IMG/VR virus record: IMGVR_UViG_3300045988_132327
Span: 1 to 58,193 of that record
Strand: one strand, 5' to 3'
Source: a virus
Taxonomy: Duplodnaviria > Heunggongvirae > Uroviricota > Caudoviricetes
DNA: 58,193 nt
Position 1 is the first letter of the stretch; each line of letters opens with the position of its first letter. Both the position numbers and the translations under genes were made by a program. The notes under the pieces were generated by a model, which was given only the letters and a program-made list of their open reading frames with translations, was not told where the DNA came from and did not search any database. Below, piece by piece: positions 2,225 through 36,829 of this stretch.

Positions 2225-2861
2225 CCGCTTTTACCTGATGTGCTTGCGTGAAACTGTGGGTAATAACGCCTCATTCCATTGCCATAACGGCAATGGTTAC
2301 AGTTCTGATATCGATCGCGCTCATGTTTACACGCTGGAAGAAGCCCAAAAAGCCTGGAATTGTGGGCGAGATATCGATCAGCCTGTTTGCGCGGATAGCG
2401 TGGATGCAATGGCAGTGTGGCACGTTGATTGCCAGTACATCCCTACAGAAAGCCTGATTGAGTCAGATTGCACTGCGTATGTGGCCTACAAAAAAGGTAG
2501 CTGGAACGGCAACGATGTTTACTGGCTTCAACACGGTGGATTGCCAACAGATGACTTCAGTAAAGCGACCATCTTTAGCGTCGCCAACAAAAACGAACCA
2601 GGAATAGTTTGGTTGCCATTTTCCATTGCTGATGCAGCAAAGCGCCGGACGTTCAATATCAATAAATTTAACCGCAGAACAATGGTTCAGGGCGCAGGTT
2701 TGGTCATGCCTGACTGGTTGAAAAAGCAGAACAGAAGAAAGAAGTCGCGAAGCGGGAAGGTGCGTTGGAATTGTCCGCATTGCGGAAAAATCACCTGGCA
2801 GTACAGCCCATATGATTTTGAAGGCTGTCGTGATTACAACTGTGAAGGATGGCGAGAATGA
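2217..2861 (+). CDS. hypothetical Cys-rich protein with C-terminal zinc-ribbon-like CPHCG...CEGW
   Basis: 214-aa ORF overlapping neighbours by a few nt (operon-like packing). Confidence 0.45.
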   Translation: MNNRFYLMCLRETVGNNASFHCHNGNGYSSDIDRAHVYTLEEAQKAWNCGRDIDQPVCADSVDAMAVWHVDCQYIPTESLIESDCTAYVAYKKGSWNGNDVYWLQHGGLPTDDFSKATIFSVANKNEPGIVWLPFSIADAAKRRTFNINKFNRRTMVQGAGLVMPDWLKKQNRRKKSRSGKVRWNCPHCGKITWQYSPYDFEGCRDYNCEGWRE

Positions 2862-3583
2862 CAATTGACTATCAGGTACTGCGTGAGGCGGCAGAAAAGG
2901 CAACACCAGACGAATGGGTCGCATTTATTTCGCCGGGTACTGGTACATATGCGGTGCATACACCCGGTGATAAACGATGTGGAGACGTTATCAAATGGCC
3001 CGGCTTTGATGGACAGGAAAACGCAGAGAATAACGCTCGTTATGTTGCCGCGTTCAACCCAAAGGTTGCACTGGAGCTGCTTGGTGAAATTAAGCGCCTG
3101 GAGGACACAAATATTGATGCTATGTGTCGAATTGCAGAGCTTGAGACTAATCTCGCGGCGCTGGTGGCGGAGAATGCGGGGCTTAAGGCCTTCAAAACCG
3201 CCGTTTATCAGCAGATGGGCGTCGGATGTGATGCTCCTGAATTCTCCATTACGGTAGGTTTGAGTAACTTACGTCGTTTTGCTGACACACTCCACGCCAT
3301 TGAGCGTGAGTTCTTTACCAAAGAGCTACCTGATGAAGAGCACGAAGGCGAAACATTCAATGAATGTCCACTTAGCTGGGGAATGAGCGTCGAACAGTAC
3401 GTTTCCGAGTTTCGCAAATGCCTGGCTGAAGTGCGGGCGCAGGGGGTAGATATGGCTCGTAACGCGATGATTGATTTTGTTGATGGTGAAGTGGGGCCAA
3501 ACAAGAACGTTCCGGGGCTGATTAGAGGCGCAGAGATATGCGTAAGTATTGCTGAACAGCTTCGCAAAGGAGGCGACCAGTGA
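2849..3583 (+). CDS. Ea22-like family protein, paralog 1
   Basis: 244 aa; N-terminal approximately 85 aa near-identical to next ORF (DYQ.LRE.AEKATPDEWVAFIS..GTYAVHTPGD), then coiled-coil-like region. Confidence 0.55.
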   Translation: MARMTIDYQVLREAAEKATPDEWVAFISPGTGTYAVHTPGDKRCGDVIKWPGFDGQENAENNARYVAAFNPKVALELLGEIKRLEDTNIDAMCRIAELETNLAALVAENAGLKAFKTAVYQQMGVGCDAPEFSITVGLSNLRRFADTLHAIEREFFTKELPDEEHEGETFNECPLSWGMSVEQYVSEFRKCLAEVRAQGVDMARNAMIDFVDGEVGPNKNVPGLIRGAEICVSIAEQLRKGGDQ

Positions 3584-8444: not shown

Positions 8445-8696
8445 GTGTCAGATCGAAATATAGCAGCTAAAAGCCAGGAAGAGCGAGACAAGGTGAACGT
8501 AGACCTTGCCGCCAGCGGCGTTGCTTACAAAGAACGGCTGAATATACCTGTGATTGCAGAGCAGGTGGCCCGTGAGCAACCGGAAAACCTGCGCGCCTAT
8601 TTCATGGAACGGCTACGGCACTACCGGCAGTTAAGCCTCCAGTTGCCAAAAGGGAGCGATCCGGTGTATCAGAACGAGGATGCACCAAAAAAATAA
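8445..8696 (+). CDS. hot: Hot, homolog of DNA polymerase III theta subunit (HolE)
   Basis: 83 aa; [29 protein letters not shown] motif series matches E. coli HolE as recalled; GTG start with gggagg SD. Confidence 0.8.
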
Positions 8697-8780
8697 CGGC
8701 AAGATGGGGGAGAAATGTGATTAGCCCCCAGCGTGGCGCGCCTACAAACCCCGCTTTCACAAACTATGCCTTTTCAATGT

Positions 8781-8800
8781 ATACTGTATAAATAAACAGT
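8781..8800. promoter_or_regulatory. LexA box (SOS operator) TACTGTATAAATAAACAGTA
   Basis: CTGT-N8-ACAG palindrome matching the LexA consensus, about 20 nt upstream of humD. Confidence 0.8.
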
Positions 8801-8819
8801 ATCATTGAGGTAAAACGCT

Positions 8820-9209
8820 ATGGGCTTCCCTTCTCCTGCGGCGGATTATGTTGAAAGCCGAATTTCTCTTGATCAGCAACTAATCAGGCATCCATCAGCA
8901 ACCTACTTCATGCGGGCATCTGATAGCCATCACCGTGAGGGAATATTGCAGGGTGCTTTGCTGGTGGTTGATTCCTCGCTTACTCCGGTTGATGGTTCTC
9001 TGCTTGTGTGCGCTATGGAGGGTGAATATCGCATAAAGAGATACAGGAAGTATCCGCGCCAGCACCTGGAGGATTTAAGCACCGGGAGGAAAGAGGCGTT
9101 ACCAGTGGATGACGATGGATGCACGGGGAGTAATGCTGTTTTTGGTGTGATCACTCATGTCATCAATGATGTCCGAAGTGGGGAATTTGATGATTGTCCG
9201 GTGATTTAA
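8820..9209 (+). CDS. humD: HumD, UmuD-like S24 peptidase-family protein
   Basis: 129 aa; LexA/UmuD C-terminal-domain-like sequence; preceded by LexA box. Confidence 0.75.
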   Translation: MGFPSPAADYVESRISLDQQLIRHPSATYFMRASDSHHREGILQGALLVVDSSLTPVDGSLLVCAMEGEYRIKRYRKYPRQHLEDLSTGRKEALPVDDDGCTGSNAVFGVITHVINDVRSGEFDDCPVI

Positions 9210-9281
9210 GCTGCAAAGTGCTGGTGCTTTATACCTGTGAAGTTTATAGTTGTGTACACATAACGAGTACATGAGGTGTTT

Positions 9282-9503
9282 ATGCAATCCATTAACTTCC
9301 GTACCGCGCGCGGCAACCTTTCTGAAGTGCTCAACAATGTTGAAGCCGGGGAAGAGGTTGAAATCACCCGCAGAGGCCGAGAGCCAGCAGTAATTGTCAG
9401 CAAGGCTACTTTTGAAGCCTACAAAAAAGCGGCGCTGGATGCTGAATTTGCATCCCTGTTTGACACCCTGGACTCCACCAACAAGGAACTGGTTAACCGA
9501 TAA
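9282..9503 (+). CDS. phd: Phd antitoxin (prevent-host-death)
   Basis: 73 aa from ATG 9282; sequence matches P1 Phd as recalled. Confidence 0.9.
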
Positions 9504-9883
9504 TGAGGCATATATCACCGGAAGAACTTATTGCGCTTCATGATGCGAATATAAGCCGCTACGGCGGCCTGCCGGGAATGTCAGATCCGGGTAGGGCAGA
9601 GGCCATTATCGGGAGAGTTCAGGCCAGAGTTGCCTACGAAGAGATCACCGACCTTTTCGAAGTCTCCGCCACCTACCTGGTGGCTACGGCGAGAGGGCAT
9701 ATATTCAATGATGCCAATAAGCGTACCGCGCTAAACAGTGCGCTGCTATTTCTACGCCGTAACGGTATACAGGTATATGATTCTCCCGTGCTGGTGGAAC
9801 TTGCGGTGGGGGCCGCAACTGGTGAAATCCCCGTATCTTCAGTAGCGGAAAAACTACGTGAATTATTTGGTTCCAATATTTGA
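9503..9883 (+). CDS. doc: Doc toxin (death-on-curing, Fic-fold kinase)
   Basis: 126 aa; overlaps phd stop by 1 nt (TAATG); matches P1 Doc as recalled. Confidence 0.9.
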
Positions 9884-9912
9884 AAAGAAGCCCGCTCAAC
9901 CAGGCGGGCTTC
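9881..9912 (-). terminator. hairpin terminator between convergent doc and 9967..10767
   Basis: gaagcccgc-loop-gcgggcttc; U-run on minus-strand side. Confidence 0.5.
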
Positions 9913-9966
9913 CTACTATCACTCAATGATTTTTTCTGCTGTCAGCCAGCTAATTCGGTGATGTTT

Positions 9967-10767
9967 TTAGGCGTCAGCATCCTCCGCTACCTCTGCTTCA
10001 ACATCAGCCACGGCTTCATCGGACGGTTCTTCTTTGGCCTGCTCTGCAATCGCCGCACGGCATTTGGCCCTTGCTGTGGCGATTGCTTCAGCACGCACAT
10101 CATCAGGAATCGTTGACGTGATATACATATCCAGTTCTTCGGCGCGGAACACTGTTTGGTCCAGATATTCGCGTAGCATCCAGGTAAATTCGAAATCACA
10201 CGCGATAATCTCTGCGCTACCTTCTGCACCATTTGGGAAATGAATAAAAGCCTGTTTAGCCAAACCGATAACACGACATGCGGTTGCCAAAACAGCGGCA
10301 ACCAGGTTTACATTTTCACACGCTACGGGCTGATTAACGCCGGAGATTACTCCATTTAACTGTCGGTTATATGGAAGGTAGTTTGAGATGCGTTCTACGC
10401 GCCATGTGCCAGTCAGGCTGCCATTCTTAAAGATAATTGGTGTAACGGATAGCCCAAGCTCGCGTATAAGTCGTTGCGCTATAGCAGGATCATTAAACAT
10501 GTCTAATGCTACACATTCGAAAGACTGTGCAAGGGTAAACAGTTCTTCCAGAGAGTAGTCTTTGCCCCTGGCGGTGATGTAACGATGAACGCCGCTTTCT
10601 GCATCACTCCATATAGCTACGCCATGCTCTTCATTCAGCTCTTCATTAAAGCCGAGATACGTCATGATAGTACGTTCAATCGTGTCAAACGGCAGTGACA
10701 TGTCGGCGTTAACAGCCACCAGCAGGCCATTACGCAAGCGGTATTGAATTGCTTTAGTATTTTCCAC
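9967..10767 (-). CDS. hypothetical protein with acidic C-terminal tail
   Basis: 266-aa ORF, last gene of cre-proximal cluster. Confidence 0.45.
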   Translation of the reverse strand: MENTKAIQYRLRNGLLVAVNADMSLPFDTIERTIMTYLGFNEELNEEHGVAIWSDAESGVHRYITARGKDYSLEELFTLAQSFECVALDMFNDPAIAQRLIRELGLSVTPIIFKNGSLTGTWRVERISNYLPYNRQLNGVISGVNQPVACENVNLVAAVLATACRVIGLAKQAFIHFPNGAEGSAEIIACDFEFTWMLREYLDQTVFRAEELDMYITSTIPDDVRAEAIATARAKCRAAIAEQAKEEPSDEAVADVEAEVAEDADA

Positions 10768-10773
10768 GTTAAA

Positions 10774-11436
10774 TCACTCCACTACAAACCAGTCACATGC
10801 CAGTAAGTCGCCTACAGAAGGCAACCACGGAACAACTACACCTTGTGCATTTTTTAAGGCGAAATAAGCACCATACGGAACGAGATCGCCGGGGAAATAT
10901 CCCTTAATGGCTTCCATTCGTGCCGGGTACTGTCCTTCAGGAACCAGCCAGCAGAATTGGTTTTCGCCGTTCCACCCGCGCCGGGCAACTTTCTTGCCAT
11001 CCTTCAGCCACATCAGCGCGTCAGAAAAGTCGGCTGCTTCAAGGTCGATTTCTTCTTGTAGAGTAGCGATACCGCCAGCAGAAATAGTTACGTCCCTGGC
11101 TGTAATGAATGTCACCCCATTGTGACCTTCAATGCTGAGCGATACCCCATTTTCGGAGGCGTCGTTAACCCGGCTATAGCATTTTTCAAATGCTTTCTCT
11201 GGCACATAGACCAGATAGCCATTTTCAGCAGTGACGAGATATCCTCCTATTTGCGGTCGGAATTTTTCCAAGAACACACCATCAACACGAAGCGTCATTC
11301 CTTTTGGCTCAACGACTTCGATACTGCCAAAAATGGGCGCATAAGCTTTGCCGACAATAACAATATCTTTGATTTTCGATGCCCGAATGATGCTGTGGCA
11401 TTTGTATTTGGGGAACACCTGAAAAGTGCTGACCAT
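10774..11436 (-). CDS. DUF2829-like (Tad2-like) domain fusion protein
   Basis: 220 aa; C-terminal ALMWLKDGKKVARRGWNG...W...DW resembles DUF2829 signature as recalled. Confidence 0.45.
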   Translation of the reverse strand: MVSTFQVFPKYKCHSIIRASKIKDIVIVGKAYAPIFGSIEVVEPKGMTLRVDGVFLEKFRPQIGGYLVTAENGYLVYVPEKAFEKCYSRVNDASENGVSLSIEGHNGVTFITARDVTISAGGIATLQEEIDLEAADFSDALMWLKDGKKVARRGWNGENQFCWLVPEGQYPARMEAIKGYFPGDLVPYGAYFALKNAQGVVVPWLPSVGDLLACDWFVVE

Positions 11437-11450
11437 AATCCTTCCTCTAC

Positions 11451-11945
11451 TTAAAACTTTGCGTACTGAAGCGGTGTACGCTTGATTTCAACGCGGTCTT
11501 CCGATGTGCTACCAAAGCCACCAGCGCCTCGCTCTGTTTCATCGAGTTCATCAACTTCTACCAGCGATACCGGTTCAACACGCTCAAAAATGCCTTGCAT
11601 GACCGCCATTCCTGGCTTGAGGCAAACGCCTTCACCACCGGGATCTGTAATCAGTTTTGCCATGATTTCACCGCGATAATCGGAGTCGATAATTCCTACG
11701 CAGTTAGCCAGGCGAGTATGTTTTTTGCAGCCCAATCCGGAACGCGGATAGAGTTTCAGACACCAGCCGGGCGGGATCTCCATAGCCAGTCCGGTGTACA
11801 CCCACCAGCTTGAGGAAATTGCACCATTGCTATCGACACATGGTTTTATTTCAACAGCCTCAAAATCCATCGCCGCCGATCCGGAGGTGGCATAAGCTGG
11901 AAGTTTTGCTGCCGGATGTAGGCGTTTCACTTTTACGTAAATCAT
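11451..11945 (-). CDS. dut: dUTPase
   Basis: 164 aa; PRSGLG and GIIDSDYRGEI trimeric dUTPase motifs. Confidence 0.75.
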   Translation of the reverse strand: MIYVKVKRLHPAAKLPAYATSGSAAMDFEAVEIKPCVDSNGAISSSWWVYTGLAMEIPPGWCLKLYPRSGLGCKKHTRLANCVGIIDSDYRGEIMAKLITDPGGEGVCLKPGMAVMQGIFERVEPVSLVEVDELDETERGAGGFGSTSEDRVEIKRTPLQYAKF

Positions 11946-12418
11946 TGTTTTTTAGCTCTCTGCGTGAAGGTGTAAACCCGACGTTTGATATGTGGAACGG
12001 TAGGAACAGGAATACAGGAACTTTCAATAACTCCTTGCTCCTCCAGCGATCGCACCGCCCGCAAGAACTGCGACGTGTCGCCGCCAAACTGGCGGGCATA
12101 GGTGCTGCCGTTATGAAGTATTTGAGCTATTACCCGAGCTTTTGTCTGGCTGTCACGATATGCGAATAGCCGCACGGCCTCTTCTGGCGCAATCGATAAC
12201 TGATAGCCTTTACCGGCACGGTGTCGAATGAATCCATGCGCCAGTAGGTTTTTGAGTTCGTTACGAGTGCGAACAGATCCGTAATCCAGGAAGTGTGGAT
12301 TGATAACGACTGGCTTAAACCATTCCGTAGGTGCTTTAGCTAATAGAGCTAACAGCTTCCCGGACAATCCTGGATAGGAAGACGGGTAACAATTCAGAGA
12401 TGGGTAATAAGTTTTCAC
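11942..12418 (-). CDS. hypothetical protein
   Basis: 158-aa ORF, start overlaps upstream gene by 4 nt. Confidence 0.4.
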   Translation of the reverse strand: MKTYYPSLNCYPSSYPGLSGKLLALLAKAPTEWFKPVVINPHFLDYGSVRTRNELKNLLAHGFIRHRAGKGYQLSIAPEEAVRLFAYRDSQTKARVIAQILHNGSTYARQFGGDTSQFLRAVRSLEEQGVIESSCIPVPTVPHIKRRVYTFTQRAKKQ

Positions 12419-14246: not shown

Positions 14247-15284
14247 ATGAGTAAGAAGTCGATCGAGAAAGAGTACAAACGGTTCCTGCAAACCGCTGAA
14301 CGGTGGAAAGAGCTGGTGGTCGCAAACTCTGTTTTCCATGATACCAGTTATTCCGGCGAGGAATTCCGCCATGTTGCACTAACACATGATCAGAATGTGC
14401 TAGAAGAAGCTGAAAAGTGCCTCACAGAATGGAAAGCCTTTGTTGACTTGTGCCGTAACGCTGACGGCAAAGCGTCTAACATTGTTGAGTCTGTATATTC
14501 TCCGATCCCATTCATTATCGAGGACACAAATCAAAGCACGCATATTGTTGTGCAAAGCGCGACCACCACCCGCTCATTTACGCGCGAAAATCTGCTCAAA
14601 AAATATGATGCAATTATAAAGAAAAGCCTGAAAAACAAGATATTTTCGCAGATTGTTGGTGCACTTGAAGAAGAGCGCCGTTTTTTCGCATCAGAACCTG
14701 AAGGGGAAGTTTACCGGGCGCGCAAAGATGGATACACAGATGTAGTGCTTACAACAAACATTGAAGGCAGCAATGCTCTGTCACGATTCAGGGTAGGCGC
14801 ACACGGAGCCTTAGTGTTCGCAAAACTTCCGAACACCACAGTGCCCGTTGTTAATAATGTCGGCGAACGTCGCAGCATTACTATTTATTCTGGGGTTGAG
14901 TCGATACCTTGCGGCCTGCTTGGTGACTTTAGTCTCTATCGCGTTCGCGATCTGGAGAAACACCAACCAAGCTATGTTGCGAAGTCATACATCTTGCGAA
15001 ACATCGACATCCGCAATGAGAGCTTAAAGAACAAATCAGCCAAAATGCTTGAGGAAGCCGATCCGGCTATTCGCCATATCATTGAGCGTAAAATACAGAC
15101 AGCACGCGAAGCGATGGCGAGACTGAATAAAATGGATCTGGAGTTGTTAGACGTAATGATGACATCCGGAGATGACCTGACAGGCATAAAACTGACAGAC
15201 GCGCGGAAAAGATACGGTAAAACCATAGAAGAACGTTACGGGTTCACTTTCTCCCAAACACAGCACGCCGCTAAACTCTGGTAA
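14247..15284 (+). CDS. hypothetical protein; positional candidate for C1-like immunity repressor
   Basis: 345 aa; convergent with pacB and divergent from cre across an operator-rich spacer; no recognisable domain. Confidence 0.45.
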   Translation: MSKKSIEKEYKRFLQTAERWKELVVANSVFHDTSYSGEEFRHVALTHDQNVLEEAEKCLTEWKAFVDLCRNADGKASNIVESVYSPIPFIIEDTNQSTHIVVQSATTTRSFTRENLLKKYDAIIKKSLKNKIFSQIVGALEEERRFFASEPEGEVYRARKDGYTDVVLTTNIEGSNALSRFRVGAHGALVFAKLPNTTVPVVNNVGERRSITIYSGVESIPCGLLGDFSLYRVRDLEKHQPSYVAKSYILRNIDIRNESLKNKSAKMLEEADPAIRHIIERKIQTAREAMARLNKMDLELLDVMMTSGDDLTGIKLTDARKRYGKTIEERYGFTFSQTQHAAKLW

Positions 15285-35866: not shown

Positions 35867-36829
35867 TCATCCCCTAAAGCCAGCCGGGATTGACCAATCC
35901 TCACGGTCAAATTCAGACCGATAGCCACGCTGTTTCATCAGGTCAAAGGCTTCACCAATGGTTGCACACCCCTGGGAGCCAGAATAATCCATTGAGAAAT
36001 CCAGGACACTGGATTGTTTAGGCTTATTCACTGCGGTAGCTGCACTACGTATCCATGCAAATTTTTTTGCCAGCTTTTCAGCGGTACGATACAGAGCCTG
36101 CCGTTTTGCGTGCCCCTCGTCTGAACGACGCTTTGCAGCTCTCGCTTTTGCCGCCGCCAGGCAGTGGTTGGTATGTTCTTCCCTGATTACTGGTTTTTTA
36201 TCCAGTAATCCATTATCCGCTTGGGAACTATCTGCTGGTGAAGCCTTTGGCTGAACCGCGCATGATCTTTCTCTTCTTTTGTCTATAGAGTGACTCTTAT
36301 TTTCTATTGGCTGTTCATTTTGAACATGGGGGGACTTGTTCAATTTGAACAGGGGGTTCCCAGTTTCAAAAAAATACCGAACCTTTGAAATCAACTGCTT
36401 AACCAGTTTTGTGGCGTTCGCAAATTTGATGCCCTGCTTACCCCCTATCTCCATTGCTACATGAATGAAGTGGAGAAATTGTGTTGTAAACCGGTATACG
36501 TTACACACCTGAGCATTGTTATTCGCTACCTGATGTTGCTTAACAAGCATTCCGCACTTCGTCGCTTCAGCAAATGCCCGGCGCACAGTAGAAATACTGC
36601 GTCCTGTAATCTCGGACATATCAGCATATGAGCGACGGATCATGTATTCATCGGTAGCTCCTGCCAGGTTGGCGAACTCGGCAATAATGGCGCTATGTGA
36701 AGGGGAAAGAAAACCGCTATGACGAGCAAAAAAACTCAACTGATGACCTTTGATTTTTTTGTGGTATTCAGTGTTGTTTTTATACTCAGAAGTGTTGAAA
36801 GTTACTGAAATTGAATTTAAAATATTCAC
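35867..36829 (-). CDS. putative RepL-like replication/regulatory protein
   Basis: 320 aa; winged-helix-like segment; internal tandem palindromes resemble an origin; assignment tentative. Confidence 0.4.
   Translation of the reverse strand: MNILNSISVTFNTSEYKNNTEYHKKIKGHQLSFFARHSGFLSPSHSAIIAEFANLAGATDEYMIRRSYADMSEITGRSISTVRRAFAEATKCGMLVKQHQVANNNAQVCNVYRFTTQFLHFIHVAMEIGGKQGIKFANATKLVKQLISKVRYFFETGNPLFKLNKSPHVQNEQPIENKSHSIDKRRERSCAVQPKASPADSSQADNGLLDKKPVIREEHTNHCLAAAKARAAKRRSDEGHAKRQALYRTAEKLAKKFAWIRSAATAVNKPKQSSVLDFSMDYSGSQGCATIGEAFDLMKQRGYRSEFDREDWSIPAGFRG
36311..36355. repeat. two tandem 15-bp palindromes TGTTCAnTTTGAACA each followed by G5, inside the RepL-like ORF
   Basis: 36311..36325 and 36336..36350, 25-bp periodicity. 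Confidence 0.6.

Follow-up and report, generated by a model that had tools for sequence, protein, structure and literature searches.

Organization of the humD locus and identity of the element

The analysed stretch of DNA, referred to below as the window, comprises 58,193 nt of a tailed-phage record. The locus of interest lies on the plus strand. The upstream neighbour of humD is hot (8445–8696), which encodes a homologue of the DNA polymerase III theta subunit (Pfam PF06440, 114 bits). It is followed by humD itself (8820–9209; NCBIfam NF051876, Pfam Peptidase_S24), the gene for an orphan UmuD′-like protein of 129 amino acids, and by a toxin–antitoxin operon in which Pfam and NCBIfam matches identify the antitoxin gene phd (9282–9503) and the toxin gene doc (9503–9883). 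The 123 nt between hot and humD (8697–8819) contain a putative LexA operator (SOS box), TACTGTATAAATAAACAGTA, at 8782–8801 (assigned to neither strand), which was recognized from its sequence and statistics, from orthology to sites in phages P1 and P7 and from its conservation. The initial annotation gave the same 20-mer at 8781–8800; the sequence was recovered, but those positions read ATACTGTATAAATAAACAGT and the coordinates had to be moved one base to the right. The geometry described there was retained: the box ends 18 nt before the ATG of the UmuD-like gene (8820) and begins 85 nt past the stop codon of the theta-subunit homologue hot. A GAGG Shine–Dalgarno sequence (8807–8810, plus strand) was read from the sequence 9 nt before the humD ATG.

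The element is a D6/RCS47-like phage-plasmid of the P1 type. The locus is 96% identical to that of phage RCS47, 95% identical to that of phage D6 and, over the parts in common, 93–96% identical to P1, P7 and SJ46, and the surrounding 7 kb matches plasmids of roughly 90 kb from Escherichia coli and Shigella. It is most closely related to phages and plasmids of E. coli, Shigella and Salmonella, and the LexA proteins of these three hosts recognize the motif found here.

The orthologue of the box is annotated in both reference phages, and a LexA box was therefore already known for the P1 family. Positions 87545–87564 of the P1 record (AF234172) are entered as a protein_bind feature, 'LexA', with the description 'regulatory region of lxr and humD', and positions 94404–94423 of the P7 record (AF503408) as a LexA protein_bind feature for 'regulation of humD expression'. 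Both sites occupy the orthologous position, 18–19 nt before the humD ATG, with phd and doc downstream of humD as in the window; the P1 site and the window 20-mer are one spacer base apart (A instead of G at position 13). These annotations are two decades old, and the window is another member of the group. The status of LexA control in P1 rests on the GenBank annotation and secondary citations; a literature search for humD together with an SOS box returned no matches.

The upstream context differs from that of P1, in which lxr and humD are transcribed away from each other on either side of the box. The 573-nt lxr of P1 (positions 1753–2325 of the P1 reference locus, L001) is absent from the gap between hot and humD, no lxr diverges across the box in the window, and hot takes its place, 85 nt upstream and reading in the same direction as humD. 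RCS47 and D6 are like the window in this respect, with lxr absent and hot upstream of humD. In D6 (L123, MF356679; region 1900–2050), hot has an internal deletion of about 216 nt and the annotated open reading frame enters the humD promoter region, with the LexA box intact.

P1 carries a second annotated LexA site, ACCTGTAAATCCATACAGTT (AF234172, 46–65), over the promoter P2coi (PMC4713147). It is like the humD box, which overlaps a predicted promoter, in being a LexA box of a P1-family element that lies over a promoter and would tie prophage gene expression to the SOS response, but it controls the C1-inactivator gene coi and not humD. A P1-type coi LexA site was rejected for the window, in which neither a Coi homologue nor a second CTGT-N8-ACAG was found. 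The product of an open reading frame at 14265–14957 (plus strand) is distantly homologous to the C1 repressor of P1 (20% identity, E = 5e-6). A phage C1 repressor was likewise rejected as the protein that binds the box, because no sequence resembling the P1 C1-operator consensus occurs anywhere in the window. The missing Coi and P1-type C1 operators suggest a different immunity specificity.

HumD scored 216.4 bits against the HumD equivalog model NF051876 (cut-off 120), with residues 1–129 of 129 aligned. Residue 2 of HumD corresponds in the alignment to Gly25 of full-length UmuD (8gmt_B), which is residue 1 of UmuD′ (1umu_A), and the start of HumD thus falls at the Cys24/Gly25 cleavage site of UmuD. 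The gene product accordingly has the cleaved, active UmuD′ form from the outset; P1 has been described as encoding an already activated UmuD (PMC7092418). A tblastn search of the window with the E. coli UmuC sequence detected no umuC homologue (best E = 0.78); the same query does detect umuC beside the umuD homologues of Pseudomonas and Chitinophagaceae. Because no umuC homologue accompanies it in the window, the 'mutagenesis module' of the initial annotation reduces to HumD alone, which was identified as described. HumD is thus an orphan accessory subunit, for which a partnership with the UmuC of the host would be expected from Pol V biology and from what the title and the citations of McLenigan 1999 convey. 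The box resembles the chromosomal SOS boxes of E. coli, and the umuDC operator in particular, in being a CTGT-N8-ACAG with TA flanks that precedes a umuD-type gene; the locus is unlike umuDC in that the gene encodes the pre-cleaved UmuD′ form only and has no umuC partner.

Statistics of the box and the predicted humD promoter

The core of the box, CTGT-N8-ACAG, forms a perfect 16-bp inverted repeat at 8784–8799 with TA on either side, as had been stated, and is the sole copy in the 58 kb window. The bare core alone is little proof of a LexA site, because shuffled versions of the window contained 0.75 copies on average and 52 of 100 shuffles had at least one. This expectation is what would favour an AT-rich palindrome that arose by chance and has no function. 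The full 20-mer, however, agrees with the LexA consensus TACTGTATATATATACAGTA at 18 of 20 positions (two mismatches), and none of the 100 shuffles contained a sequence within three mismatches of the consensus. Heterology indices were calculated with a matrix rebuilt from 23 E. coli SOS boxes, not with the published table. On this scale the box scored 1.37, the best value in the window; the 23 reference boxes span 0.7–9.6, and the window box falls within the range of the strongest of them. No site with an index of 4 or less appeared in any of 60 Markov simulations of 58 kb. With the full match absent from all shuffles and simulations, and with both sequence and position conserved across genera (see below), a chance palindrome is scarcely credible. 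The feature is real and is statistically and evolutionarily well supported as a putative LexA operator.

A consensus scan placed a predicted promoter for humD on the plus strand across the start of the box. The −35 hexamer TTCACA (8756–8761) and the −10 hexamer TATACT (8780–8785) are separated by 18 nt and match the consensus at 10 of 12 positions, and the last four bases of the −10 hexamer are the first four bases of the box. The scan returned one promoter-like match in 1.8 kb against 1.9 expected, which is not above chance; the same register, with a −10 hexamer that ends in the TACT of the box, recurs in distant humD homologues. If the predicted promoter is correct, its overlap with the box is the classic geometry for repression by occlusion. 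No intrinsic terminator was predicted between hot and humD.

The P1 record puts a predicted PhumD 440 nt upstream, inside lxr. Because this DNA is absent from the window, the promoter that overlaps the box is the only candidate here. The P1 reference differs from the window in its −10 hexamer, which is TGTACT (L001, 2452–2457) and compares less well with the consensus than the TATACT of the window. The other P1-like sequences have TATACT, with TATGCT in three, and P1 alone of 84 sequences has G at the second position. The TGTACT of P1 might be linked to weak HumD expression and to the placement of PhumD in the P1 record.

Conservation of the box across humD loci

Conservation was assessed first among P1-like elements (n = 84: 80 public viral contigs together with P1, P7, RCS47 and the window). 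In all 84, CTGT-N8-ACAG precedes the ATG of humD by 18 or 19 nt. The box occurs in 13 variants, with changes confined to positions 2, 7–10, 13, 19 and 20, and it is kept in three upstream contexts: beside hot, beside lxr and in a third. A tblastn search of the 80 viral contigs with P1 Lxr found lxr in 39, while in 36 hot is present and lxr is missing over a span of 1.5 kb. Between the hot and lxr contexts, the sequence next to the promoter differs up to about the −35. The P1-like set is shallow, its proteins being 94–99% identical, and one genome per species was therefore also examined.

This distant set comprised 31 enterobacterial humD homologues with 27–76% amino-acid identity. A strong box lies within 45 nt of the ATG in 18 of them, as a single box in ten and in tandem in eight; at three of the tandem loci only one box is fully intact. 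In a further ten the strong box is found about 260–285 nt upstream, ahead of a small open reading frame that ends at humD. Three homologues (L090, L099 and the Sodalis locus L113) have no box within 700 nt. A relaxed box pattern usually occurs once per locus of about 3.4 kb, at that position. The flanks of these loci are otherwise unalignable, and when 12 diverse upstream regions were aligned, the invariant non-coding columns were essentially TACTGT and ACAG, with a purine-rich GAGG/GGAG block also retained. Across many genera, the box is the sole non-coding block that is conserved ahead of humD-family genes.

Three layouts were seen among the orphan humD-like genes (L084–L121). In the first, a single LexA box lies 15–19 nt upstream of the gene. 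In the second, two boxes in tandem lie 43 and 19 nt upstream and there is a divergent gene, read as DinI-like in L088. The third has the box about 260–285 nt upstream of humD with a small open reading frame between them (103 amino acids in L084, the one that was read). These genes, from prophage-like regions of Citrobacter, Kluyvera, Enterobacter, Klebsiella and other Enterobacteriaceae, are like humD of the window in encoding a pre-cleaved UmuD′-like protein that starts MGFPSPA, in having a strong LexA box and in lacking umuC within 1.5 kb. They are unlike it in that some share tandem boxes with a divergent gene and others have the small extra open reading frame.

The comparison bears on the possibility that the box is a relic of a P1-type divergent lxr/humD region, serving mainly lxr and functionless here. 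P1 annotates the site for both genes, lxr is named for a 'LexA regulated function' and the window has no lxr, all of which this possibility would accommodate. The P7 record, however, assigns the site to humD, the core is intact at all 36 of the hot-adjacent public viral loci without lxr, and a box precedes distant humD homologues that never had lxr. We therefore regard a relic as very unlikely. None of the 31 distant homologues has hot, lxr or phd-doc next to humD. The LexA box follows humD across genera, and not lxr or phd-doc; the comparative evidence points to a box that belongs to humD itself.

The palindrome was also considered as an RNA hairpin, for example one that marks the end of the hot transcript or directs its processing, or one that acts in the translation of humD. 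The inverted repeat extends to 8776–8806 and folds at −8.9 kcal/mol (z = −4.3), as a hairpin of this kind would. Against this, no U-tract follows the palindrome, a terminator scan found nothing there and there was no Rfam match. The stem bases CTGT and ACAG are invariant across diverse homologues and show no co-variation, and the sequence follows the LexA consensus, which an arbitrary palindrome would not. Because the half-sites are invariant without compensatory changes, a protein-recognition site is favoured over an RNA hairpin, which is extremely improbable. A terminator or RNA element of hot was rejected on the same observations.

Proposed SOS control of humD and its reach

Given what was computed here, namely the sequence and rarity of the box, its conservation, its orthology to sites annotated in other phages and the family to which HumD belongs, the box most likely functions as a switch for humD. 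Promoter use, LexA binding, induction and the partnership with host UmuC are what we infer from these, as follows. The 20-mer at 8782–8801 would be an operator for host LexA on the humD core promoter, where it would overlap the predicted −10 hexamer and the likely start of transcription. As long as the lysogen is undamaged, a LexA dimer on the box would block access of RNA polymerase and humD would stay silent; transcription that comes in from hot might be hindered as well. Once DNA is damaged, RecA filaments would promote self-cleavage of LexA, the operator would be freed and humD would be transcribed. As HumD would be made in the UmuD′ form, the second, RecA-dependent activation step of UmuD would not be needed, and HumD could pair with SOS-induced UmuC of the host to give a Pol V-like translesion polymerase.

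In E. coli, Shigella and Salmonella, resistance genes are often carried by P1-family phage-plasmids. Elements of this family appear to keep an SOS-wired, pre-activated UmuD′ gene, which could raise damage-induced mutagenesis in their hosts. To the site annotated in P1 and P7 the present analysis adds the association of the box with humD across genera, a lineage without lxr and a second LexA-like box in a lytic replication gene (described below).

The initial annotation extended SOS control from humD to, probably, phd-doc. For humD the proposal is supported by the orthologue annotated in P1 and P7, the overlap with the predicted −10 hexamer and the status of the box as the only conserved upstream block; as a built-in feature of phd-doc it is not. 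The addiction operon has a promoter of its own, Pphd, which was mapped from the P1 annotation by alignment to 9222–9250 on the plus strand (−35 TGGTGC, 9222–9227; −10 TATAGT, 9245–9250) and is followed by a palindrome, GTGTACAC, at 9252–9259. It lies in the 72-nt spacer between humD and phd, which is 98% identical to that of P1. Pphd and its surroundings contain no CTGT-N8-ACAG, all heterology indices there exceed 8, and a LexA box in the promoter of phd-doc itself was rejected.

Control of phd-doc might instead be indirect, through read-through from the derepressed humD promoter across the spacer. The scan for intrinsic terminators predicted none between humD and phd, and the spacer is no more stably folded than its shuffles, so some read-through after derepression is possible; the humD–phd–doc cluster is moreover common to P1-like elements. 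Against SOS control of the operon by this route are its own box-less promoter with downstream palindromes, conserved at 98% with P1, and the occurrence of the LexA box with humD at loci that have no phd-doc. The linkage of humD and phd is not conserved outside P1-like elements, and in D6 (L123, MF356679) it is interrupted by an extra open reading frame of 423 nt (orf109, 2582–3004). Autoregulation of Pphd by Phd and Doc would dampen any added transcription and could form a roadblock to it. Because the box tracks humD, phd-doc does not and an open reading frame intervenes in D6, SOS control would seem to belong to humD and not to the addiction operon, and we consider control of phd-doc by read-through possible but rather doubtful.

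A second strong LexA-like box, TACTGGATAAAAAACCAGTA, is present on the minus strand at 36188–36207 and is unannotated. Its heterology index is 3.8, to be compared with the absence of any value of 4 or less from the 60 simulations of 58 kb. The box lies within an open reading frame (35867–36829, minus strand) for a repL-like 'lytic replication protein' of the D6 type, where it encodes L-D-K-K-P-V; D6 was the only match to this repL-type gene among phage records. The box is identical in D6, and 20 of 21 related viral contigs retain CTG-N10-CAG, a count confounded by coding constraint at 93–100% identity.

It is conceivable, although we think it unlikely, that in the D6/RCS47-like lineage without lxr the operator gates transcription from hot through humD to phd-doc and, together with the box at 36188–36207, makes up a small LexA regulon. 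If this were true, such a regulon would tie mutagenesis, an addiction toxin and lytic replication to DNA damage in the host.

Downstream of humD and phd, similarity to P1 stops within the 3′ end of doc. Over 9840–12000 of the window, pdcA and pdcB of P1 are replaced by minus-strand genes, which include those for a DUF2829 protein and a dUTPase. A strong GC-rich hairpin at 9887–9912 (z = −2.75) looks like the terminator of these convergent genes.
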